Source: Candidatus Obscuribacterales bacterium (GTDB lineage: Bacteria > Cyanobacteriota > Vampirovibrionia > Obscuribacterales > Obscuribacteraceae). From it: a stretch of DNA of 64,000 nt. Positions 44,973 through 56,800 of this stretch are shown piece after piece. Numbering within the stretch: position 1 is the first letter of the stretch; each line of letters begins with the position of its first letter. The DNA is taken from contig CBDDIJ010000005.1 of NCBI GenBank assembly GCA_965228855.1, positions 992,001-1,056,000 on the forward strand, read 5' to 3'. Both the position numbers and the translations under genes were made by a program. Under the pieces are notes generated by a model. That model had not been told where the DNA came from. It saw only the letters and a program-made list of their open reading frames with translations, and ran no database searches.

Positions 44973-45075
44973 TTCCACCAGAGCGAGTTCGCCTCTCAAA
45001 AATCCGGAACGCAACGAGTAAGCCTGTTGCTGAAAAGTTTCAGCGAAGAAGTATCCATCTGACAAAGGTAGCTTC

Positions 45076-46524
45076 GTGATGAAACCGAACTTGTTTGTTT
45101 TATTGGTGGCTCTTCTCTGTTTTCAATCAGGGGCAGCTGCGAGCGAAACACGCAGTGCGTTCGATAAATATCTGATTCAAGCGGACCGCGATCGCAACAC
45201 TGAAGCGCTCGCCATGATCACTGCATTGTCGAAACGCGATCCGAACAACGAGATGTATCTATCCGAACGCGCTCGTATGCTGATGAATTTAGACCGCTAT
45301 GGGGAAAGCATCGAAGTCGCGACAAAAGCGTTGAAGTTATCGCCAACCAACGCGAGCACCCTGCGAACGCGTTCATACTGCTACCTGATTCAGCACAACT
45401 ACAAAGCCGGAATTGCGGATTTGCTTCTCGCCATCAAACACAGCCAGCCGGACTTCGTGGTTATGTGGCCGCACAACGATCACGACAATCTAGCAAGAGC
45501 ATATTCGCTAACCGGTCGCAACGATCTAGCCCAGAAGGAGCGCGAACTCGCAGCTCTCGACCAAATGACGGAACAAGCCGTTTCAGCCAGAGAACGCGCA
45601 AGTTTAGACAAGTCGATCAAGATCTGCGATCAAGTTCTTCAGAAAAATCCAAAGTCAGTAAATGCACTTGGATTCAAAGGACTCTGCCTGAATAATCTCT
45701 CGAAGTTCAACGAATCCATCGAATACTTGTCGCGCGCAATTGCGCTAAAACCCAAAAGCGTGGCGCTGCTATATCTGCGAGCTGATGCGTATAGAGAGTC
45801 GAAACAGTTTGAAAAAGCCATCCTGGATCTCAGCAAGATAATCGAGTTGAAACCGCAAGTCGTGATGTTTAAATTTGCGTCTCATACGGGAAGACTGCGC
45901 GACACCTTTAGCCATGAAGACATCGACACGATCACGATGCCGGACATCTACTATCTTCGCGGAGCTTGCTATGTCAGCCAGAAGAAGTACGACCTGGCAA
46001 TCAAAGATTTCAAACGGACATTGCAACTGGATCCAAAAGAGTTTAAAACAGCGGCGAGCATCGGCAACTGTTTTTTCAATTTGAAAAATTACAACGATGC
46101 CATTGCAATGTACACAAAAGCAGTATCGATAAATCCGCGTTATTGGCTAGGATACACGGCAAGAGCCAATGCCTATGAACAAGTTGGCAAATTGGAACAA
46201 GCCGCAACAGATTATTCGACAATTTTAAAAACACATCCCGGGGACATTGGTGCACGCTGTCTACGAGGAAACGTCTACCGAAAAGCAAAAGCATTCGACA
46301 AAGCGCTCGCGGATTTCTCGAAAGTTATCGAGTTAGCACCGAACGATGACGAGGGTTTTCGCAATAGAGCAGAAGCGTATGCCGAACTTGGGAAATTCGA
46401 ACTGGCACTTCGCGATTACGACAAGGCGCTCAGTCTGAGCTCTGAGGACAAAGAGCAAATAGCGAAGTTGCGCGCGGCCGTTTTGAAACGTATGGGACAA
46501 AAAGCCGCACCTGGTGCGCGTTGA
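45076..46524 (+). CDS. Exported TPR protein
   Basis: Signal peptide; about ten canonical TPRs (e.g. YYLRGACYVSQKKYDLAIKDF). Confidence 0.88.
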   Translation: MMKPNLFVLLVALLCFQSGAAASETRSAFDKYLIQADRDRNTEALAMITALSKRDPNNEMYLSERARMLMNLDRYGESIEVATKALKLSPTNASTLRTRSYCYLIQHNYKAGIADLLLAIKHSQPDFVVMWPHNDHDNLARAYSLTGRNDLAQKERELAALDQMTEQAVSARERASLDKSIKICDQVLQKNPKSVNALGFKGLCLNNLSKFNESIEYLSRAIALKPKSVALLYLRADAYRESKQFEKAILDLSKIIELKPQVVMFKFASHTGRLRDTFSHEDIDTITMPDIYYLRGACYVSQKKYDLAIKDFKRTLQLDPKEFKTAASIGNCFFNLKNYNDAIAMYTKAVSINPRYWLGYTARANAYEQVGKLEQAATDYSTILKTHPGDIGARCLRGNVYRKAKAFDKALADFSKVIELAPNDDEGFRNRAEAYAELGKFELALRDYDKALSLSSEDKEQIAKLRAAVLKRMGQKAAPGAR

Positions 46525-46581
46525 AAGGACAAAAATCGGGTAAAAAGATTTCACTTCCCGTCGCCCCTTTCAGGTGCAGTC

Positions 46582-47904
46582 ATGGTAACGGAATTAGAAA
46601 GAGTCCTTGCTCACAGCCGCGCGTTCGTTGACGACATGGTCAGTGAAGAGTTAAACGGCAAACCATTTTCAAAGGCGGCAGTGGAAGAATCAATCACCGC
46701 GTTCTACGCGATGCAGAAGCATGTTCGTCCGCAAATAATTTGGTTTCAAAATCCCTGGCAGTTGCACTACGGACCGGGCTTGTTTGAAGGTTACAAACGA
46801 AAGCAAATTCGGATTGACAGTTTTATAACCGAACTTACCAACACTACTCGCAGCCTGCTCGAAGAGCAGATGGGCAAACGCGAAACAGCTTACATTCTCG
46901 CATCTATTCAAGCGCTTATGCCGACGCGAAGTCTTTCGATGCTTTCACGTACCGTCGATCGGGAAATAGAACTTCTGAATCGACAACAAGATCATACACC
47001 GCTTGAGCTTTGCCACGGTCTGTTCAAAACCTGTAGCGATGCGAATCTGGCTCAGAATAGCAAGCTCAGATACATGCGCGAAGCAGAAAAACTAGATCGA
47101 AACATCGGTTGGTTTCAATTGCATCACGTAACGAATATCGAGAGCCCGTGGGAGCACCTAATCGTTGACTCGCAAAATCCGTTTGGAGTTCGCGGGCAAT
47201 CTCATTTTGAATGGGATTTCTGGGGCGAGCGACGAGCACCACAAGAGCCACCATTACATCTGCCCACACCAGGTGCAGAATGGAGTCACTTTCTGCGGAT
47301 GCGGACGGCAAGCATCTCTATCGCACAGCGTTTCATTGGATTAAAACTCATCGATGAGCTTGCAGAGGCAGCTTTCGTTTTGCAGACGCTGGGAGAGAAT
47401 GTTCATTCTATTGCATGTTTTCATGACGTATGTTTCGTTAGTGAGCCTCCGATTTCCATCAGCAGAGACGAAGATGGGCGATTTCATCGGCTGGGTGGTC
47501 CCGCGATAGATTACGCAGGTAATTTCCACATCTACTGCTGGCGCGACACACGTGTGACTGCCGATGCGCTCACCGGCGAAGTCACGGTCGATCGAATTCA
47601 GAAAGAAAATAACATTGAGGTCATGCGGATCTTACTGGAGCGATATGGCATCGAAGAGTTTCTTCGAGACAGTCAAGCGCAACACGTTCAAGAAGACGAA
47701 ACTGGAGCGCTATATAAACTCAGAGGAGGTCCCTGGGGTGATTCAATTGCTCTAGTGGGCGTCGTAAACTCAACTGCGGAACCAGATGGCACCTTCAAGC
47801 GCTACTTCCTCCGCGTCCCGCCCGATACCACAAGCGCCCGCGAGGGCGTCGCGTGGACCTTCCAATTAGCGACGGATGAATACTCTCCGCTCATCGAATC
47901 TTGA
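46582..47904 (+). CDS. DUF6745-like domain protein
   Basis: C-terminal GRFHRLGGPAIDY...ENNIEV.R...VNSTAEPDGTFKRYFLRVPP...AREGVAWTF signature. Confidence 0.8.
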   Translation: MVTELERVLAHSRAFVDDMVSEELNGKPFSKAAVEESITAFYAMQKHVRPQIIWFQNPWQLHYGPGLFEGYKRKQIRIDSFITELTNTTRSLLEEQMGKRETAYILASIQALMPTRSLSMLSRTVDREIELLNRQQDHTPLELCHGLFKTCSDANLAQNSKLRYMREAEKLDRNIGWFQLHHVTNIESPWEHLIVDSQNPFGVRGQSHFEWDFWGERRAPQEPPLHLPTPGAEWSHFLRMRTASISIAQRFIGLKLIDELAEAAFVLQTLGENVHSIACFHDVCFVSEPPISISRDEDGRFHRLGGPAIDYAGNFHIYCWRDTRVTADALTGEVTVDRIQKENNIEVMRILLERYGIEEFLRDSQAQHVQEDETGALYKLRGGPWGDSIALVGVVNSTAEPDGTFKRYFLRVPPDTTSAREGVAWTFQLATDEYSPLIES

Positions 47905-47905
47905 G

Positions 47906-48802
47906 TTATGAAGGTTGCAGTTTTTCAAATTCCCGTGGCGCAAGCTGTTGGCGCGCGAGTTCCAAAACGGAATGTGCGCGTTCCGAACAACCTGCTCGAC
48001 GTGCAGCATTTATGAATAAGCTAAACGATTCCGCGTCGCTCGCCACTGCGAAAACCTTTCGCACGAATTCATCAGCGACAAAGTCCCGATTTAGACCCAG
48101 ACTCGCTTCGAAAAGAAGTGCAGCATCACCCACAAGATCAGCACGACAATTATCCACATAAGACGAAAGCGCCTTATCCAGAGAGCCTGGAAATAAAACG
48201 CTGCTTTCAACTTCGACCCACATTCTCAGGAACTGAAGTCCCAACTTATCAAAGTAGGGTTCAATTCGCTGGTATTTCTTTTGACTTAGATATCTATCCA
48301 GGCTATGTCGCACAACAACTAGAGAATGGGATAACGTCATCTGACTGTCGCTATTCGCACTTCTCATCTTCTCGAGAAGAACCAAGTCCGGTTCTTCCTC
48401 TCCGAGAGCAAGGCTCAGGGCCAGCCACTCTTCTATTACCGCATGCGATTGAAAACCGCCGACAATTTTTTCCGCAAGTTCATCACGAAGGTTGTTTAAT
48501 GACTCCCTTGCAGCCGGATAACGTTCTAGCAGAACCGTCAAGCACGACTCCAAAGCCAGATCTTGCATGTTACCAACGGAACCTGTTAGAGATGAGAGGT
48601 AGAGTTCAAGTGCCCTCTCGTACTCTCCTGCCTCGACAAACTGGCGGGCTTTGAAGAGCTTCTCCAATTTAGCTGAAATTTTTTGCAGCCCTGTCGTCGT
48701 TCTCTCGCGCGGCACCATATCATCCTCAACGTATAACTGTCTCAACATATATCGACTATCATTGCACCTAGTCGTGTACTTATTGTGAGCCGACCGCCCC
48801 AA
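47906..48802 (-). CDS. Hypothetical all-helical protein
   Basis: 298-aa ORF filling the gap; true start probably downstream (MLRQ or MVPR). Confidence 0.65.
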   Translation of the reverse strand: MGRSAHNKYTTRCNDSRYMLRQLYVEDDMVPRERTTTGLQKISAKLEKLFKARQFVEAGEYERALELYLSSLTGSVGNMQDLALESCLTVLLERYPAARESLNNLRDELAEKIVGGFQSHAVIEEWLALSLALGEEEPDLVLLEKMRSANSDSQMTLSHSLVVVRHSLDRYLSQKKYQRIEPYFDKLGLQFLRMWVEVESSVLFPGSLDKALSSYVDNCRADLVGDAALLFEASLGLNRDFVADEFVRKVFAVASDAESFSLFINAARRAGCSERAHSVLELARQQLAPREFEKLQPS

Positions 48803-48876
48803 GCGTTAATGACTGTCAGCGACACAAGCAGCTTCGTCACAAGTCGATCGCGAGAAAATAAGGATTCGATCAGCAT

Positions 48877-48897
48877 CGGTTAACAACACCTTAACCG
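48877..48897. promoter_or_regulatory. Perfect palindrome CGGTTAA-N7-TTAACCG (candidate operator)
   Basis: 7-7-7 inverted repeat just upstream of a -10-like GATAAT (48905-48910) between divergent genes. Confidence 0.55.
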
Positions 48898-48918
48898 TGC
48901 AAATGATAATTTAGTGGC

Positions 48919-49032
48919 ATGAAAAATCAAGAATACGAGTTGAAGAGAAACCGACCAAGGCAAACGAGAAGCCTTCCAGAAAGCCAATCGAGTTTATACC
49001 AGAACGTCCAGCCCGAACAATTTAGTCCGTAA
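48919..49032 (+). CDS. Possible 37-aa leaderless small ORF / leader peptide
   Basis: MKNQEYELKRNRPRQTRSLPESQSSLYQNVQPEQFSP*; ATG 8 nt after GATAAT; terminator 4 nt after the stop. Confidence 0.35.
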   Translation: MKNQEYELKRNRPRQTRSLPESQSSLYQNVQPEQFSP

Positions 49033-49036
49033 TTCC

Positions 49037-49064
49037 AACCGCCGTTCGAGGCGGTTTTTTGTTT
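49037..49064 (+). terminator. Intrinsic terminator upstream of the MNIO operon
   Basis: aaccgcc-gttcga-ggcggtt followed by ttttgttt. Confidence 0.75.
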
Positions 49065-49144
49065 CCAGAATAGCCCGTTATCAAAGGGCAAAAAGTAATA
49101 CAGATTTCCAAGCCGCACCGCATCTGGTGTCGCAGGAGGTACAC

Positions 49145-50026
49145 ATGTTCTTTTTTGAAATTTCAGGTCCAGAGTTCCTGTTATGGTACGTGGTCTTTAT
49201 GGCGGTCTCTCTGATTGCCGCGCATGTAGCGAGAGCCAGCATCCTGCACGTTTCCACAAAAGATGTACCTGACGGTGAGATAGATGAATACGATATTGCT
49301 TACTTGAATGGCGGCGCGGAGCAGGTGTTCTTCAGCGCTATCGCAACTCTCGTTGAATGTGGCACAGTGGAACTCGATAATAAAGAACGAAAGCTGACAA
49401 TAAAAGACAACCAAATGAAAAAACAGCTTCACGTTGTAGAACAGAATTTAGTCAATACAATTCACTGGGGTCAAGCAGCGACTGTAGACAAACTATTTGA
49501 TCGGTTTAAACCCGCCACGGAAAAACTGAAAAGTCGATTGCAATCTATGGACCTGGTTGCAGGCGGAGATCGAGAAGTATTTGTAACCGCAATTCCGATG
49601 ATGATTCTAATGGCTCTGCCAATCGGACTCGGAATTCCCAGGTTGCTTAACGGGCTCTATCACAACCGCCCAGTATCATTTTTGCTTATCCTTCTTCTTG
49701 TTTCCTTCGTGATGATCCTGATGAGCGTGCTCAACAAAAATAAGAGAACCACTCTCGGTGACGAGGCTCTGCGAATACTTCAAAAGGATCACGCATCTCT
49801 GAGAGCAAACTTCAGCACCTGCAGACACACGCTTAAACCGCAAGATATTACCCTGGCGTACGCTCTGTTCGGCGGGGTTCTGGGCGGCGCCTTAATCAGC
49901 ACGCTGGACCCGTTTAACGCCGCAAAAGCTGCGATGCACCCGCCTGTATCCGGTGGCGGCGGAGGATGCGGAAGCAGTTGCGGCGGGGGATGTGGTGGCG
50001 GATGCGGTGGCGGTTGCGGAGGCTAA
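49145..50026 (+). CDS. TIGR04222-domain membrane protein with Cys/Gly-rich C-terminal tail
   Basis: GPEFLLWY, YDIAYLNGG...AIATLVE.G signature; RPVSFL, RTTLG; tail GGGGGCGSSCGGGCGGGCGGGCGG; ATG after AGGAGGT. Confidence 0.88.
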   Translation: MFFFEISGPEFLLWYVVFMAVSLIAAHVARASILHVSTKDVPDGEIDEYDIAYLNGGAEQVFFSAIATLVECGTVELDNKERKLTIKDNQMKKQLHVVEQNLVNTIHWGQAATVDKLFDRFKPATEKLKSRLQSMDLVAGGDREVFVTAIPMMILMALPIGLGIPRLLNGLYHNRPVSFLLILLLVSFVMILMSVLNKNKRTTLGDEALRILQKDHASLRANFSTCRHTLKPQDITLAYALFGGVLGGALISTLDPFNAAKAAMHPPVSGGGGGCGSSCGGGCGGGCGGGCGG

Positions 50027-50087
50027 AGGAACGAAGATATCGTTTACAACCACAGTATTAATCAGTTGAGATTCTAGAGTAAGGCAC

Positions 50088-50984
50088 ATGAACAACAGAC
50101 ATACAAAACTGGGAATAGGCTGGAGACCAGAAATAGCGGTAGCAATCGAGCGCCGCAAAGACCTCGATTTCGTTGAAGTACTCTTCGAGAATTTGGTTGG
50201 AAGAGAAATTCCACAAGCTTTGCTAAACCTTCGAGAACGCGGCATTACGATAATTCCCCACGCGGTGTCTCTGTCATTGGGTGGCGCCGAAAGACCGAAC
50301 GCCATAAAACTGAAACAGTTCAATAGAATGGCAAAAGCGGTTGATGCCCCCTTCGTGAGCGAACACATAGCATTTGTTCGCGCTGGAGGCAAGGAGTCTG
50401 GACATCTCCTGCCCGTGCCGAGAACAAAAGGCGCGCTCAAAGTTCTCGTTGAAAACATAAGCATCGCGAAGGAGCACCTGACGGTTCCACTCGTTCTCGA
50501 AAACATAGCGATGCTCTTCAACTGGAACAATTCCGAGATGGACGAAGCGGAGTTCATCACAGAGGTTCTAGAGCAAAGCGGTTGTCTGATGCTTCTTGAC
50601 GTAGCGAACCTTTATGCTAACTCTCTTAATCACAAGTTCAACGCAGTGGAGTTTCTGAAGAAACTTCCGCTGGACAAGGTCGCATATGTTCATACAGCCG
50701 GCGGCGTACTAACTAAGGGCATCTATCACGACACACATGCGCACCCGGTTGTTGATGACGTCCACTCGTTACTCGCAGAGCTGATGAAACTGAATGCGCC
50801 ACCACGAGTGATGCTCGAACGCGACGATAACTTTCCCGGCGAAGAGGCTCTTAATAACGAGCTTGATAGTATCGCAGCCATAATTCAGGGAGGCAATAAC
50901 CATGAGTACTTACAGACAAGAGTTGGAAGCGCAGCAGGAACAGCTTATAAACGCGCTCCTGAATTTAGCCGCGGCACCTTCTGA
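50088..50984 (+). CDS. DUF692 / MNIO (multinuclear non-heme iron oxidase) family enzyme
   Basis: GIGWRPE, PHAVSLSLG, VSEHIAF, LVLENIA, LLDVANLY, YVHTAGG, HDTHAHPV, LERDD: full set of metal-ligand motifs. Confidence 0.93.
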   Translation: MNNRHTKLGIGWRPEIAVAIERRKDLDFVEVLFENLVGREIPQALLNLRERGITIIPHAVSLSLGGAERPNAIKLKQFNRMAKAVDAPFVSEHIAFVRAGGKESGHLLPVPRTKGALKVLVENISIAKEHLTVPLVLENIAMLFNWNNSEMDEAEFITEVLEQSGCLMLLDVANLYANSLNHKFNAVEFLKKLPLDKVAYVHTAGGVLTKGIYHDTHAHPVVDDVHSLLAELMKLNAPPRVMLERDDNFPGEEALNNELDSIAAIIQGGNNHEYLQTRVGSAAGTAYKRAPEFSRGTF

Positions 50985-51219
50985 GGTAGATGCAGAACAA
51001 GTTCTCTGTTGCGCTCTAACGTTAAGAAACAAGCGTGCGCGCGTACTGAATAAACTTTCAGGCAGCAATGATGACTGTTGCGGCTCCAGAAGTGAAGAGA
51101 TGGAAGCTTATTTTAAACGTTATCCGGGAGTTCATCCCGACGGAGGATATGCTGACCTGAGGCGCTACAAGCGTTTCCTCGCAATCCGTCGAATTAAAGC
51201 GCGATTCGGTTTATTCTAG
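50902..51219 (+). CDS. Putative MNIO partner protein
   Basis: Own RBS (GGAGG) and ATG; RQELEAQQEQLINALL...LRNKRARV...GGYAD resembles, from memory, the extra C-terminal domain of actinobacterial DUF692 proteins. Confidence 0.7.
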   Translation: MSTYRQELEAQQEQLINALLNLAAAPSEVDAEQVLCCALTLRNKRARVLNKLSGSNDDCCGSRSEEMEAYFKRYPGVHPDGGYADLRRYKRFLAIRRIKARFGLF

Positions 51220-52097
51220 CGACTGCGAACTTTGGCGTTGACGGCCGTTTTCGTGATGCGCTGTGAGTAATTCTCAACTGGTGCGATTCTGCTGTAAGGC
51301 GCATAGCTGGCAGCCACGGTAGGCTCCAAAAGTTTAGCTTCAGCATTCTTTGCGATCAACTGTGCATCGACTCCACGCGCAGCAAGCTGGGCGGTGCATT
51401 CTTTCTGAGCCAATTGTCCGTTTACCGCTCTTGTTGCGGAGTTATTCAATCTGTTAGGTGATGCGTTGAGTTCCGCTTGAGCCGGATTGATTTTCGCCAT
51501 CAAATTCTTGCGACGAAGCTCGGCCTCCACTGCAGTGGTGGGCTCATGTTGGCCGCCGGGCGGGATTAAGCGGCCCATTGTGTCTCTATTCGAGAGTTGC
51601 GGTGCCACGTGTTTATAACCAATTGAAGTGTTGGTGCTGCGAAGGGTCGGAGCAACGTGTTTGTAAGCGATTTGTGTTCCAGTGCTGCGATGCGGTGCGA
51701 TTTGGGTCGGTTTCTTATAGACGCTTGGTCTTGCTTGAACCGGTTTATAAAGGTAATTTTTGCTGTCTATCGCAGTCTGATTTTTCTTCGACTTAGATGC
51801 GACCTCATGCTTCTTACCTCTAGAAGTCAGGCATTGTCGCGGGGGCGGCGGCGGACCGACGAGCCTCGTGCCCTGAACATTCGCATATATGGGATTCCAA
51901 TGGTAGTGCCGGAGGTTGGGATTGGACTTCAGGATATTGTTTTCCCAGTTTCTAATTTCGACGCAACCTACCGTCGCGCGAACCGGTCTCAATTCACCCC
52001 GGCGGGCAGCCTCGGCTTTCTGACCACCAACGAGCGCCAGAATTATAAAAACTGCCATAGCCAAGCCCTTGCGGGTGTTTTGGGAAGCGAAAACCAT
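51216..52097 (-). CDS. Secreted basic hypothetical protein with internal repeats
   Basis: Signal peptide ending AEA; YKHVAP x2; repeated V-x-(G/A)-x-L motifs; ATG 52097 after AGAGGTG. Confidence 0.7.
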   Translation of the reverse strand: MVFASQNTRKGLAMAVFIILALVGGQKAEAARRGELRPVRATVGCVEIRNWENNILKSNPNLRHYHWNPIYANVQGTRLVGPPPPPRQCLTSRGKKHEVASKSKKNQTAIDSKNYLYKPVQARPSVYKKPTQIAPHRSTGTQIAYKHVAPTLRSTNTSIGYKHVAPQLSNRDTMGRLIPPGGQHEPTTAVEAELRRKNLMAKINPAQAELNASPNRLNNSATRAVNGQLAQKECTAQLAARGVDAQLIAKNAEAKLLEPTVAASYAPYSRIAPVENYSQRITKTAVNAKVRSR

Positions 52098-52108
52098 AAC
52101 CACCTCTT

Positions 52109-52125
52109 GCTATAAACTTTATAGC
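52109..52125. promoter_or_regulatory. Perfect palindrome GCTATAAA-C-TTTATAGC
   Basis: 8-1-8 inverted repeat immediately upstream of the RBS of the 51216-52097 gene. Confidence 0.45.
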
Positions 52126-52444
52126 TTTTTCCCAAGACGTCGACTATGGGGAGATTACCATCGCTGGAACCGTTTATGAAACACTGCTCAAATGCAGTCA
52201 GCGCAAGCCTTTGGGAAATAATGACCGGGGCAAATCATGACAAATTCTTCTGATATTCCCGATATACGGCGGTTTTCGGCAAAAAATGTACCTACTTATA
52301 CCTAAATCCGCCAGATTTGAAAGGTAACGATTGTCATTACCAAGCCTTTTGATGTGTGAATGTCTGTGTCAGAATGCCATCGGAATCCTGAAGCGTGGCA
52401 AATTGCGCATTTTATCGGCTTCCCTCTTAAGAAAATCAGATCTC

Positions 52445-53368
52445 ATGAATTCAAGACTGACACGGAGAAGAGTTAATACCCTCGGGGTTTTAACCGCTGC
52501 CGCGGCAGCACTGCTAACGTTGAACGCTTGCAGCAAGGATACGAATTCCGACCCTAGAAATCTAACGCCAATGGTTTCTATAGAGGGATCGGACACGATG
52601 AGCGTTCTGCTCACCAAATGGGCGACTGCGTTCATGAAGGACAACCACGACATCCCGGTCTCCGTCACCGTCGCAGATTCCGGTGCAGGCTTGAAAGCTC
52701 TTCTGGACCGCAGAACAGACATTGCGGCCTCATCACGAGATCTCACAAATGAGGAAAACGAGACAGTACACAGCAAGGGCATGCACCTGGTGCGCCGAAT
52801 CGTCGCATTGGACTCAATCGCTGTCATCGTGAATCCGCAATCAGAGCTCACCGAAATTGCTTTACCGGAATTGCGCAAGGTTTTTGCGGGCACCATCAGC
52901 GACTGGTCGCAGCTCGACAGCAAACTGAAAGGCGACATCGTCGTTTGTGTGAGAGAGCCGGAGTCAGGCACCTCTAATTACTTTAGAGAACATGCACTAA
53001 AGTCGCCAAAGGAGCCCAAAGAGACCGCCCCGACTGAATACTCGAAAAACGCAGTTATCTTGAACTCGAACGACGCCCTGATCGGAGCGATTGCAACCAA
53101 CAAAAGCGCAATCGGTTTCCTTCCATATAGCGATGCTAGAAGTGCGACAGATAAGGTCAAATCGCTAAAAGTTAAACTGATGGCATCTTCGCCGGACGCG
53201 GTTGCGCCGACTCTGTCAGCAACAACGGATGACTACTCGCTGAGCCGACCGCTTTATATGTTCTTCGACTCGAAGTCAAAACCGTCGACCAAGAAATTCG
53301 TCGATTTCTGCCTCAGCGACAAGGGACAGGCGATCGTAAAAGAGCACGGATTCGTCAAGCTGAAGTAG
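52445..53368 (+). CDS. pstS: Phosphate-binding lipoprotein (PstS family), no adjacent pstCAB
   Basis: Lipobox LNAC; IEGSDTM, DIAASSR, ALDSIAVIVNP, REPESGT, YSLSRPLYM. Confidence 0.85.
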   Translation: MNSRLTRRRVNTLGVLTAAAAALLTLNACSKDTNSDPRNLTPMVSIEGSDTMSVLLTKWATAFMKDNHDIPVSVTVADSGAGLKALLDRRTDIAASSRDLTNEENETVHSKGMHLVRRIVALDSIAVIVNPQSELTEIALPELRKVFAGTISDWSQLDSKLKGDIVVCVREPESGTSNYFREHALKSPKEPKETAPTEYSKNAVILNSNDALIGAIATNKSAIGFLPYSDARSATDKVKSLKVKLMASSPDAVAPTLSATTDDYSLSRPLYMFFDSKSKPSTKKFVDFCLSDKGQAIVKEHGFVKLK

Positions 53369-53599
53369 TGGCCGATTGGCAACAGTTGTTTAATCAGGCA
53401 GAGAGTTGAAACGGATCTGTCATCTGAATTCTGCGCGCATTTTCGATGCTTAACGTTCTTCAAATTTTGCTTCGCAGCATGGCGTTTGACTTGCCGAACT
53501 TTTCGTAGCTTTTGGAATGTATCGAAGAGTAGCATCCGTTTTTTCTTGTGCTATTTACCTGTCATGGAGAAAGGAAACGGTTGCAAGTGAAGGTGTGAA

Positions 53600-53785
53600 A
53601 TGAGAGCCCTGAGAACGACCAGAGACAATTTGATTGAGGTCAACTTTGGAAAGCAGGAAGAAGTTAGATTGCTCAGCGCGGAGGAAGAAACTTCCGAGCA
53701 GTCGGAGAAAGTAACCTGCGAGAATGGCGTTTGCACTTTGAATTGGTCACCGACAAGACCCGCAAAGAAATCGGAAGCCGCTTAA
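53600..53785 (+). CDS. Small protein with CENGVC motif
   Basis: 61 aa, AAGGTG RBS, acidic linker, C-x4-C followed by TLNWSP. Confidence 0.65.
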   Translation: MRALRTTRDNLIEVNFGKQEEVRLLSAEEETSEQSEKVTCENGVCTLNWSPTRPAKKSEAA

Positions 53786-53891
53786 GCTTCACTTCCAGCG
53801 GTACTTACGTTTGATTACCAAACCGTGACAACTGACGCCGATCACCGTATCCTTAGGTAATGGCGCAGGTGACTATGTCCAGGTAAGTATT

Positions 53892-56800
53892 TTGTCGCGC
53901 AAAAATTTTCTAGACCGACTCAAAGAAAAAGTCCTCATTTTCGATGGGGCAATGGGAACGTCGATTCATAAATATGATCTGACCCTCGATGATTACGCGG
54001 GTCTGGAAAACTGTCCGGAGATTCTCGTCGAGAGCCGCCCTGACGTGATCCGCGAGATCCACGGCTCGTTCTACAACGTAGGCTGCGATGTAGTCGAGAC
54101 TAATACGTTTGGCGGAACCCCGATCGTCCTTGCAGAGTTCGGGATTGCAGAACGCGCCTATGAATTGAACAAGAAAGCAGCGGAACTCGCACGAGCAGTG
54201 GCGGAAGACTATTCAGCGGGCGGTCAGCAGCGTTATGTTTCCGGCTCGATAGGTCCGACAACTAAGCTTCCCTCGCTAGGTCACATAAGCTTTGCGGATA
54301 TGCGGGATGCCTATTACGAACAGGTGCGCGGTCTCGTTGATGGTGGCGTGGACGCGCTGCAGTTTGAAACCGGTCAAGATTTACTACAGGCAAAAGCCGC
54401 AGTTATAGCCATGCTCGATTACTTCAAGGTGATCGGGCGCAAAGTTCCGATCATCGTTCAAGTAACTATCGAAGCGCCTCCACTAGGCACCATGCTAGTT
54501 GGCTCAGACATCAGCTGCGCGCTGACGACTATGTCGGCATTTCCGATTGACGTAATCGGAATAAACTGTGCGACTGGTCCGAGTGAAATGCTCGATCCGA
54601 TACATTATCTGTGCAACAACACGGATAAACTCGTGTCAGTACTGCCGAACGCTGGATTGCCTGAAAACGTTGATGGTCAAACGGTTTATAAACTAACTCC
54701 GGATGAACTTGCAACAGCGCTCAAGCACTTCGTGGTTAACGATGGTGTCAACATCGTTGGTGGCTGTTGTGGTACCACTCCGGACCACCTGGCGCGAGTG
54801 GTGGAAGTGATTGGAAATGCCGCGCCGAAAAAGCGCGAACCCATTTACACACCAGCTGCAGCCAGCATCTACACAAGCGTTCCATTTGAAATGGATCAGC
54901 CGCCCTTGATTGTTGGTGAAAGAACCAACACCAATGGCAGCCGCAAATTCAAACAGCTTTTGCAAAAGGAAGATTGGGACGGAATGGTCTCGATGGGTCG
55001 TGAGCAAGAGCGCGAAGGCGCGCATGTGCTGGACGTTTGCACAGCATATGTCGGTCGCGACGAAATCCGCGATATGAATACGCTGATTAAGCGTTTAAAC
55101 ACAGAATTACAAATTCCGATAGTGATAGACACCACCGAGTATCCCGTTCTTGCCTCAGCGTTAGAACGCATAGCCGGCAAGCCCATAGTTAATTCCATAA
55201 ACTTGGAAGATGGCGTCGACAGTATGATGCGCAAGGTTGGTCTGATAACTCGCTTCGGCGCAGCCACTGTCGCGCTGACTATCGACGAAGATGGTATGGC
55301 GAAAACAGCAGATCGAAAAGTCGAGATTGCCAAACGCATTCACGATCTGGCTGTTGAAGCGGGTCTTCCAGCACACGATATAATTTTCGACGCTCTGACG
55401 TTTACTCTTTCGACTGGAAATGAAGAGGATCGCAAGCTCGGTTTGGAAACCCTGAAGGCGATCAAGATGATTAAGGAGCAACTGCCGGGAGTAAAAACTA
55501 TTCTCGGCGTGAGCAATATATCGTTCGGTTTCGATCCGATTATCAGGCAAACCTTAAACTCCGTTTTCCTCCACTATGCCGTTGAATACGGGCTGGATAT
55601 GGCGATCGTGAACGCTCAAAAAATCTTGCCGTTATTCAAAATCAACGAAGAAGAGCGCGAGTTTCACCGCAAACTTATCTTTGACGAACGCACTGAAAGC
55701 TACGATCCACTATTCGCGTTGCTCGATTACTACAAGGCGAAGACTGCATCGGAAGCCAGTGAAACCAAAGTTGTTCAGCACAGAGAAATCGAAGACGTCC
55801 TGAAGAACCGCATCATCGACGGCAATCGTGTCGGTTTGGAAAAGGATCTGGATAAGGCGCTTGAGAAATACGCGGCGCTAGAGATCATCAACAACATTTT
55901 GCTGGACGGTATGAAGGTCGTCGGAGACCTGTTCGGCAGCGGTAAGATGCAGTTGCCGTTCGTACTGCAATCAGCAGAGACGATGAAGGCTGCGGTAGCG
56001 TATTTGGAACCTCATATGGAAAAGGTCGAAGGCGCGAACCGCGGAACCATGGTGCTCGCCACGGTCAAAGGTGACGTTCACGATATTGGTAAAAACCTCG
56101 TCGACATTATCCTTTCGAACAATGGCTACAAGGTTGTAAACCTCGGCATTAAACAACCAATTGAAAACATAATTGCAGCAGCACTGGAGCACAAAGCCGA
56201 TTGCATAGGCATGAGCGGTTTGCTCGTAAAGTCAACAGTCATCATGAAAGAGAATCTGGACGTGCTGAACCAGCGCGGAATAAAGGTTCCCGTTATTCTC
56301 GGCGGCGCGGCTCTAACGAGACGTTACGTCGAATTCGACTGCAGGCAGAACTATCGAGGTCTGACCTTCTACGGTCAGGATGCCTTCGACGATTTGAAGA
56401 TCATGGAAGCGCTGCACGCGTTACGCACAGCTCAAGACAAGCTGGGTGGATTATCAGAGGAAGAGTTGCTGGCGCAAGTACACGGAACTTCAGGACTGTC
56501 TACAGCACATCCGGAAGAAGACGAAGCGACCGAAGAAGCGTTAAGCGATGGAACCGGCGCCGGAGAAGCCAGAATGCTCGAAGACGATGACGCCAGTGAC
56601 GAATCGCTCGACGAGCAAACTGCAGCTCGAATAATAGAGGGCAAACAGAAAGCACCTAGTTGCGCACGCGTGTCAAAATCTGGCATTGCAGGTGGTGCCA
56701 ATGGCGGCTCCAGTGAACGCGAAAACACGACTCGTTCCGACGTGTCTCGAACGATCGACGTCCCAAATCCGCCTTTCTGGGGTTCCAAGATCGTTGATGA

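Follow-up and report, generated by a model that had tools for sequence, protein, structure and literature searches.

The closest described systems to the locus considered here are the TIGR04222-MNIO-PME-type 2 clusters. An in silico survey (PMC12452194, Microb Genom 2025), in the portion of its text available to us, proposes the cysteine-bearing tails of TIGR04222 proteins as putative MNIO substrates served by 'PME-type 2' partners, puts the TIGR04222 family at more than 3,500 proteins, predicts the tail and the large domain to reside in the periplasm, and states that modification of these tails remains to be investigated. A literature search, in which subscription journals were thinly covered, returned that 2025 paper, a preprint and a passing mention, and found no experimental study of TIGR04222-MNIO clusters. 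The cassette described in this work is real, intact and conserved, and it belongs to this class predicted in print: as far as the available text of PMC12452194 describes them, the published clusters comprise the same trio in the usual order, a Gly/Ser-Cys tail, a short DUF2063-like partner, no DUF2063 gene, and the same proposed substrate role. It differs in that the present host lies outside the Actinomycetota, which dominate the family, and in that we favor the cytoplasm for the tail, whereas the paper places it in the periplasm. Both the arrangement of the genes and the proposal of the tail as substrate were already published there; the additions made here are the topology, a docking segment and a set of counter-cases.

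Other systems offer partial parallels. The captophorins (bufferins, oxazolin and fontiphorin; MNIO-PME1), as presented in the accessible part of PMC13097082, share the same metal-site residues and repeated Cys-Gly units, but they are small Sec-exported precursors with a DUF2063-RRE partner, whereas the candidate substrate here is an integral membrane protein of 293 aa with three helices, the partner has 105 aa and lacks PF09836, and the enzyme falls below the BufB and HvfB cut-offs. The methanobactin (MbnBC) and pearlin (TglHI) systems likewise combine an MNIO with a helical partner, and the partner in our cassette shows a weak resemblance to the N-terminal helices of MbnC and TglI; in contrast, their precursors are short, soluble and leader-bearing, and the enzyme here is far below the MbnB cut-off. 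The PF27765/GRDP-like proteins, which are found in bacteria and, as plant AtGRDP2, are covered by the accessible part of PMC4299439, have the same C-terminal Gly/Cys repeat and are in some cases fused to a TIGR04222 domain. They differ in possessing a His-rich N-terminal domain, mostly without an MNIO, whereas our membrane protein lacks that domain and is accompanied by an MNIO. Should the tail be modified, an MNIO would be rewriting an integral membrane protein in place, and the locus would open a family that has no characterized product in the literature found. It offers a compact three-gene test case, with a predicted docking segment (residues 214-234 of the membrane protein) and a predicted topology that contradicts the published one.

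Results

The window, by which we mean the whole 64,000-nucleotide stretch of DNA that was analyzed, holds three open reading frames on the plus strand: gene A (49145-50026), a TIGR04222 membrane protein of 293 aa; gene B (50088-50984), an MNIO (DUF692/PF05114) of 298 aa; and gene C (50902-51219), a 105-aa helical, PME-type-2-like putative MNIO partner. The first-pass annotation had read these as an operon of a TIGR04222 membrane protein, an MNIO and a 105-aa helical protein, and its reading frames, profile assignments and motifs were all borne out. Genes A and C are preceded by the ribosome site GGAGG, and gene B by a weaker AAGG. The final 83 nt of gene B lie within gene C. An assembly frameshift was considered as the origin of this overlap and rejected; we take the overlap to be real because two sequencing runs (possibly the window's own source) carry the stretch on one contig with 0 differences and 0 indels, and because the gene lengths in a close relative equal those of genes A, B and C here.

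Gene B adjoins gene A, and no DUF2063 gene lies next to it. The cassette itself contains no protease or exporter gene, and no copper-related gene was seen adjoining it. The same annotation had reported no short cysteine-containing precursor nearby, and we too found no short Cys-rich frame with a ribosome site on the operon strand within the intergenic DNA of 45000-54500. A 37-codon frame at 48919 was entertained as a hidden precursor and discarded, having neither a Cys nor a ribosome site; it meets an immediate stop in 3 of 8 aligned genomes. A DUF6745 protein is encoded nearby at 46582-47904, and similar genes adjoin the cassette in two relatives (L004, L005).

The product of gene A matches TIGR04222 at 100.7 bits, above the cut-off of 43, and its AlphaFold2 model (pLDDT 88.5) has three predicted transmembrane helices at residues 8-34, 141-172 and 178-196. 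The protein ends in a Gly/Ser tail (49949-50023, plus strand) in which five Cys, at residues 275, 279, 283, 287 and 291, are each followed by Gly, and which we regard as a candidate core peptide; pLDDT drops to 43-56 beyond residue 270. Among the 19,942 open frames of at least 100 aa in the 8.2-Mb genome, A alone ends with at least 4 Cys and at least 17 Gly/Ser in its last 25 residues. Homologues of A among the matches listed all (120/120) carry 3-8 Cys within their last 35 residues, with Gly directly after 620 of 665 tail Cys. A Foldseek structure search with A gave no match, and a search for a solved relative returned generic three-helix bundles alone.

The product of gene B scores 268.2 bits on PF05114 (cut-off 25) and matches the sequences of 3bww, TglH and MbnB. 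It holds H58, H93, E138, D171, N174, H202, D215, H217 and E244, nine metal-site residues which we take to be the full metal-ligand set; an alignment of 37 cassette MNIOs shows no variation at these positions in any of the 37. According to the accessible part of a preprint (bioRxiv 10.64898/2026.07.17.739211), N175, D242 and H244 of HvfB are essential; by motif these correspond to N174, D215 and H217 of B. The enzyme lies below every NCBIfam cut-off for a characterized MNIO: the best model is BufB (199.8 against 310), and scores on HvfB (182.3 against 360) and MbnB (40.7 against 325) likewise fall short. An MNIO tree of 65 rows places B among the tail-linked MNIOs, where it groups with records named Ca. 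Obscuribacterales/Melainabacteria, and apart from the two bufferin enzymes of its own genome; no single origin is claimed for the tail-linked MNIOs, because two changes would be needed and long branches meet. Besides B, the genome encodes three MNIOs: two each come with their own bufferin-type precursor and DUF2063 partner, and one is a distant orphan for which no precursor was seen (L015:4567-6827, L016:5843-7912 and L017:6113-7000). One of the two precursors has six Cys and the other carries short Cys-Lys repeats; their partners match PF09836.

The product of gene C is predicted to fold into four helices (pLDDT 89). Its homologues carry PF26136, while C itself gave no Pfam match (PF09836 included), no Foldseek match and no name from the ESM Atlas. 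Its structural matches to MbnC (VIA Z 4.9, rmsd 4.0, 77 aligned), TglI (VIA Z 3.9, rmsd 5.0, 96 aligned) and NGO1945 (VIA Z 4.1) are each in the noise range taken singly; all three fall within the top 15 of 48,161 chains. At 105 aa, C is too short for an RRE domain. In several relatives the MNIO bears a C-type domain fused at its C-terminus, and these fusions support the assignment of C as a putative MNIO partner.

Upstream of gene A, a leader (48878-49147) is kept in 8 of 8 aligned genomes, with about 130 variable bases separating its initial box from a hairpin. The box, which includes an extended -10 element (48904-48912), spans 48878-48921 on the plus strand and is retained in all eight genomes despite differing upstream genes; it is likely the activator-dependent promoter of the cassette. 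It occurs a single time in the genome, a regulon search having found no second copy there, and is not shared with the bufferin clusters of this genome. A terminator-like hairpin with a U-run inside the leader (49037-49066, plus strand), clear in 5 of the 8 aligned genomes, is a possible attenuator. Two short inverted repeats (49073-49089 and 49115-49129, plus strand, 8/8 genomes) lie just 5' of the ribosome site, and substitutions in their arms preserve pairing in the eight aligned genomes; they are candidate operator sites or RNA hairpins. The leader as a whole is possibly an attenuator or small RNA; it matched no Rfam family, and its folding was no better than that of shuffles (z -1.19). Promoter-like box, terminator-like hairpin and inverted repeats all accompany the cassette, though its neighbors differ among relatives.

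Among 40 relatives searched, A is present in 12 of 24 genomes of the same family, including 7 of 7 of the genus, and in 0 of 16 outside the family. The trio is complete in each of the 12 relatives having A, being intact with 4-7 tail Cys in 11 and frameshifted in one, and no other conserved gene accompanies the cassette in same-family relatives. Further afield, scanning DNA for the tail by itself gave at least 117 stretches, of which the 80 with flanks were examined; the 80 comprise 10 without an in-frame tail, 47 TIGR04222-like carriers and 23 other carriers. A gene-neighborhood survey had been suggested as a check in the first-pass annotation, and its outcome favors the proposed pairing: among the matches listed, 42 of the 47 TIGR04222-like carriers are followed on the same strand by an MNIO, and 36 of those 42 also have the partner (two of the scan's cassettes repeat ones already counted among close relatives). 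The remaining five carriers among these matches comprise two with radical-SAM genes, two at contig ends and one with neither. Actinomycete loci, of which 54 were chosen by domain rather than by tail and 42 were scored on the profile, gave an MNIO within the locus in 22 of 22 Cys-tailed cases; in this, as in every tail, MNIO or homologue count given here, kin are not independent.

The tail is also found on other anchors. Among the matches listed, one carrier (L082) consists of a signal peptide, an outer domain, one helix and the tail, and adjoins an MNIO and partner; two others (L085, L128), with a signal-peptide outer domain and a single-helix tail, lie beside radical-SAM/SPASM enzymes.

The link between tail and MNIO is strong yet non-obligatory, because MNIO-less tails and tail-less MNIO loci both occur. 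Within the phylum of the host, TIGR04222 was matched in 22 of 301 genomes, from which 20 loci were widened and 19 scored. Seven of these are long forms with a PF27765 N-terminal domain (UCP032817-like, GRDP-related) and 3-6 tail Cys, and their genomes (99-100% complete) contain no PF05114 match. Twelve are cyanobacterial short forms, of which 11 end in a Cys tail or a short Cys-bearing terminus; nine of the 12 have an adjacent MNIO, one of these being cut by a contig end, and the three with none adjacent (L060-L062) all belong to the 11. From the tail scan, eight PF27765-type carriers among the matches listed lack a nearby MNIO, and 5 of 7 of their genomes checked (completeness not given) have no MNIO at all. 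Of the tail-less streptomycete loci, 18 were widened, and in 15 of them a fusion of MNIO and partner persists, its nine metal-site residues complete and no Cys tail nearby, an arrangement that looks like the 'adjamnio-II' of PMC12452194 as described in its accessible portion. Five genomes with such loci held no tailed homologue beyond one weak match, and a short DNA tail pattern matched five streptomycete genomes no more often than did a control. These loci (L242-L259), which lie beside heme synthesis genes, combine intact MNIO-partner fusions with a tail-less TIGR04222 paralogue. At least three of them have a gene for a 59-78-aa six-Cys peptide upstream of the gene preceding the MNIO, and this peptide might be another MNIO substrate.

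As modeled, A is likely inserted N-out/C-in, and we consider it very likely that the tail resides in the cytoplasm, where the MNIO is. This placement is new relative to the published class, and runs against the periplasmic prediction of PMC12452194. Across 96 sequences, K+R averages 0.5 before helix 1, 2.8 after helix 1 and 4.1 after helix 3; the loop between helices 2 and 3, which is outside in the proposed model, carries 2.7 K+R and counts against a cytoplasmic tail. Were segment 233-253 a fourth membrane helix, the tail would lie outside, as the available text of PMC12452194 predicts. That segment is borderline hydrophobic, its hydropathy reaching 1.6 in 56% of homologues; in the AlphaFold2 model, residues 232-242 form an 11-residue helix, too short for a membrane crossing. 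The long forms bear on the same question. Exactly one hydrophobic segment lies between the soluble N-terminal domain and the TIGR04222 start in 23 of 28, eight of these having a lipobox-like motif, and the soluble domain is itself without a hydrophobic segment; given a single segment before its start, the TIGR04222 domain would begin outside, and the tail would therefore come to lie inside after three helices. Inspection of the single-helix signal-peptide carriers (L082, L085, L128) gives the same answer by sequence, and in L124, among the matches listed, the tail directly follows a helix pair. The first-pass annotation had raised the concern that the tail could lie across the membrane from the enzyme; the charge bias, the AlphaFold2 model and the fused long forms favor the cytoplasm, and a far-side location is probably not the case.

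A model of the three proteins together was a further check proposed at the outset. B and C were modeled jointly with full-length A from paired 37-row alignments, alongside three controls, and the resulting complex placed B on A 214-234 with a score of 0.75, the best of the three controls scoring 0.00. Of 157 solved pairs, 116 attain the score mark, as against 2 of 215 mismatched ones, figures that apply here only roughly. At least 34% of contacts are common to the runs, and the pLDDT of A is at least 76. Since no relative of A has been solved, the model is unlikely to be reproducing a similar known complex. The confident interface comprises residues 13-21, 42-47 and 249-255 of B against 214-234 of A (49784-49846, plus strand), and supports direct binding of B to this predicted docking site, an internal leader-like segment; the confident contacts with A include neither the tail nor C, which is evidence neither for nor against their involvement. 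The docking segment, our second addition, lies some 50 residues ahead of the first tail Cys, and the accessible text of PMC12452194 names no docking site. It has a length of 21 residues in 30 of 37 MNIO-linked forms as opposed to 3 of 28 long forms, whose segments measure 8-35 residues and often 19-20 (genome context being known for 7 of the 28). The first tail Cys falls 44-73 residues beyond position 222.

Discussion

The reading we prefer, and hold to be reasonably probable, is that the MNIO likely docks on the likely cytoplasmic segment 214-234 of A and oxidizes the tail cysteines in place. The enzyme likely rewrites these cysteines because the operon pairs a Cys-tailed membrane protein with a predicted docking enzyme and a helper. 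In the proposed sequence of events, A would be inserted N-out/C-in, with its soluble domain and tail inside, and B together with C would dock on A 214-234. This contact would take the place of the leader/RRE contact of other MNIO systems, as the 105-aa partner is too short to supply an RRE. The flexible tail could then reach the iron site, where, if the chemistry of the family holds, its Cys would be oxidized using O2 and a di-iron centre. The accessible part of PMC13097082 describes Cys-Gly as the modified unit in fontiphorin and oxazolin, each Cys losing 4 Da to yield 5-thiooxazole. By analogy, each Cys-Gly of the tail would lose approximately 4 Da, and if the tail is modified, 5-thiooxazole would be its most likely product, a proposal to which we assign slightly less than an even chance. 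The modified product would remain on the inner membrane face, because the cassette is without a protease or exporter; proteolytic release of a modified core from its leader, as in a RiPP in the strict sense, would have to rely on an unlinked protease. The weakest step is the function, for which we tentatively suggest, again by analogy, that the modified thiols may serve as a buffer or sensor by binding Cu or a different soft metal; sensing or the handling of other metals would be equally plausible, because a cytoplasmic site differs from that of the exported captophorins. By membership the cassette stands outside the captophorin clusters, yet by analogy it probably employs similar chemistry.

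That the tail is the substrate of the MNIO was the central proposal of the first-pass annotation, and it is sustained in part: gene context, carrier swaps, topology and the complex model speak for it, and the non-obligatory character of the link, in either direction, speaks against it. Also weighing against our preferred reading are the scores of B, below the cut-off of every NCBIfam model for a characterized MNIO, the lack of any copper-related gene seen adjoining the cassette, and an upstream box that the bufferin clusters of this genome do not share. Three other explanations must be weighed. It is conceivable that the tail is never modified and serves as a flexible multi-thiol that binds metal or Fe-S or senses redox, with the MNIO acting elsewhere or obtaining iron from the tail. 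Full Cys tails in seven genomes without any MNIO are in keeping with this, as are the eight PF27765-type carriers (among the matches listed) without a nearby MNIO, five of seven of whose genomes have none at all, and the Gly/Cys end consensus shared by plant GRDP proteins, as reported in the accessible part of PMC4299439. Yet two unrelated Cys-modifying enzyme families adjoin the same tail on different anchors, and the MNIO-less carriers mostly hold the His-rich PF27765 domain, itself a putative catalyst; we regard an unmodified tail as unlikely.

Less probable still, in our estimation, are two accounts that we rate alike. One holds that A is a scaffold tethering the MNIO at the membrane, its tail being accessory and the substrate another protein or peptide, which would suit both a confident interface confined to A 214-234 rather than the tail and the 15 of 18 streptomycete loci where intact MNIO-partner fusions adjoin tail-less TIGR04222 paralogues. 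It sits poorly with the joint occurrence of tail and enzyme in same-family relatives and at each of the 22 tailed actinomycete loci, with the lack of any other conserved gene accompanying the cassette among same-family relatives, and with the lack of a small candidate precursor near the operon. The other has the tail modified in the cytoplasm and then brought outside, through a fourth helix or cleavage by an unlinked protease, as a bufferin-like outer copper buffer. The periplasmic prediction in the available text of PMC12452194, the borderline hydrophobicity of segment 233-253 and the ranking of BufB as the best NCBIfam model for B are all compatible with such a route, but the modeled helix of 11 residues at 232-242 is too short to cross, the tail of L124 follows its helix pair directly, those of L082, L085 and L128 come after one helix that is itself preceded by an outer domain with a signal peptide, and the cassette has no protease gene. 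In-place oxidation of a cytoplasmic tail remains the reading we favor over all three.

A broader conception of the tail is that of a portable cytoplasmic maturation tag, borne by many unrelated membrane anchors, matured by three interchangeable and unrelated catalysts, and extending to plant GRDP proteins; we consider this unlikely. The catalysts would be an O2-dependent MNIO acting by way of an internal leader helix (as at this locus), a radical-SAM/SPASM enzyme, and a His-rich PF27765/GRDP-like domain, which in the absence of an MNIO would act on the chain it belongs to.

Several minor observations concern relatives of the tail. The PF27765 domain has conserved Trp-His-x-His and His-His-x-Pro motifs ahead of the Gly/Cys tail, in genomes most of which lack an MNIO (fusions at L045-L051, L067, L075, L079, L086, L109, L118, L124 and L139), and from these motifs it could be a metal-dependent catalyst acting on its own chain. 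A nucleotidyltransferase-like gene, absent from the window's cassette, lies beside tailed proteins at L010, L012, L076, L082, L085, L100, L128 and L131, and is found in both MNIO and radical-SAM versions. What appears to be a minimal version of the tail-MNIO system occurs at L087:2869-3298, where tandem single-helix peptides of 53 and 65 aa with Gly/Cys tails adjoin a nucleotidyltransferase-like gene and are convergent with an MNIO and partner. Finally, an archaeal protein at L091:3501-4949, with heavy-metal-associated and DsbD-like membrane domains, ends in a Gly/Cys tail and is encoded upstream of a gene that begins like a heavy-metal P-type ATPase, a context that hints at a link of the tail to metal handling.
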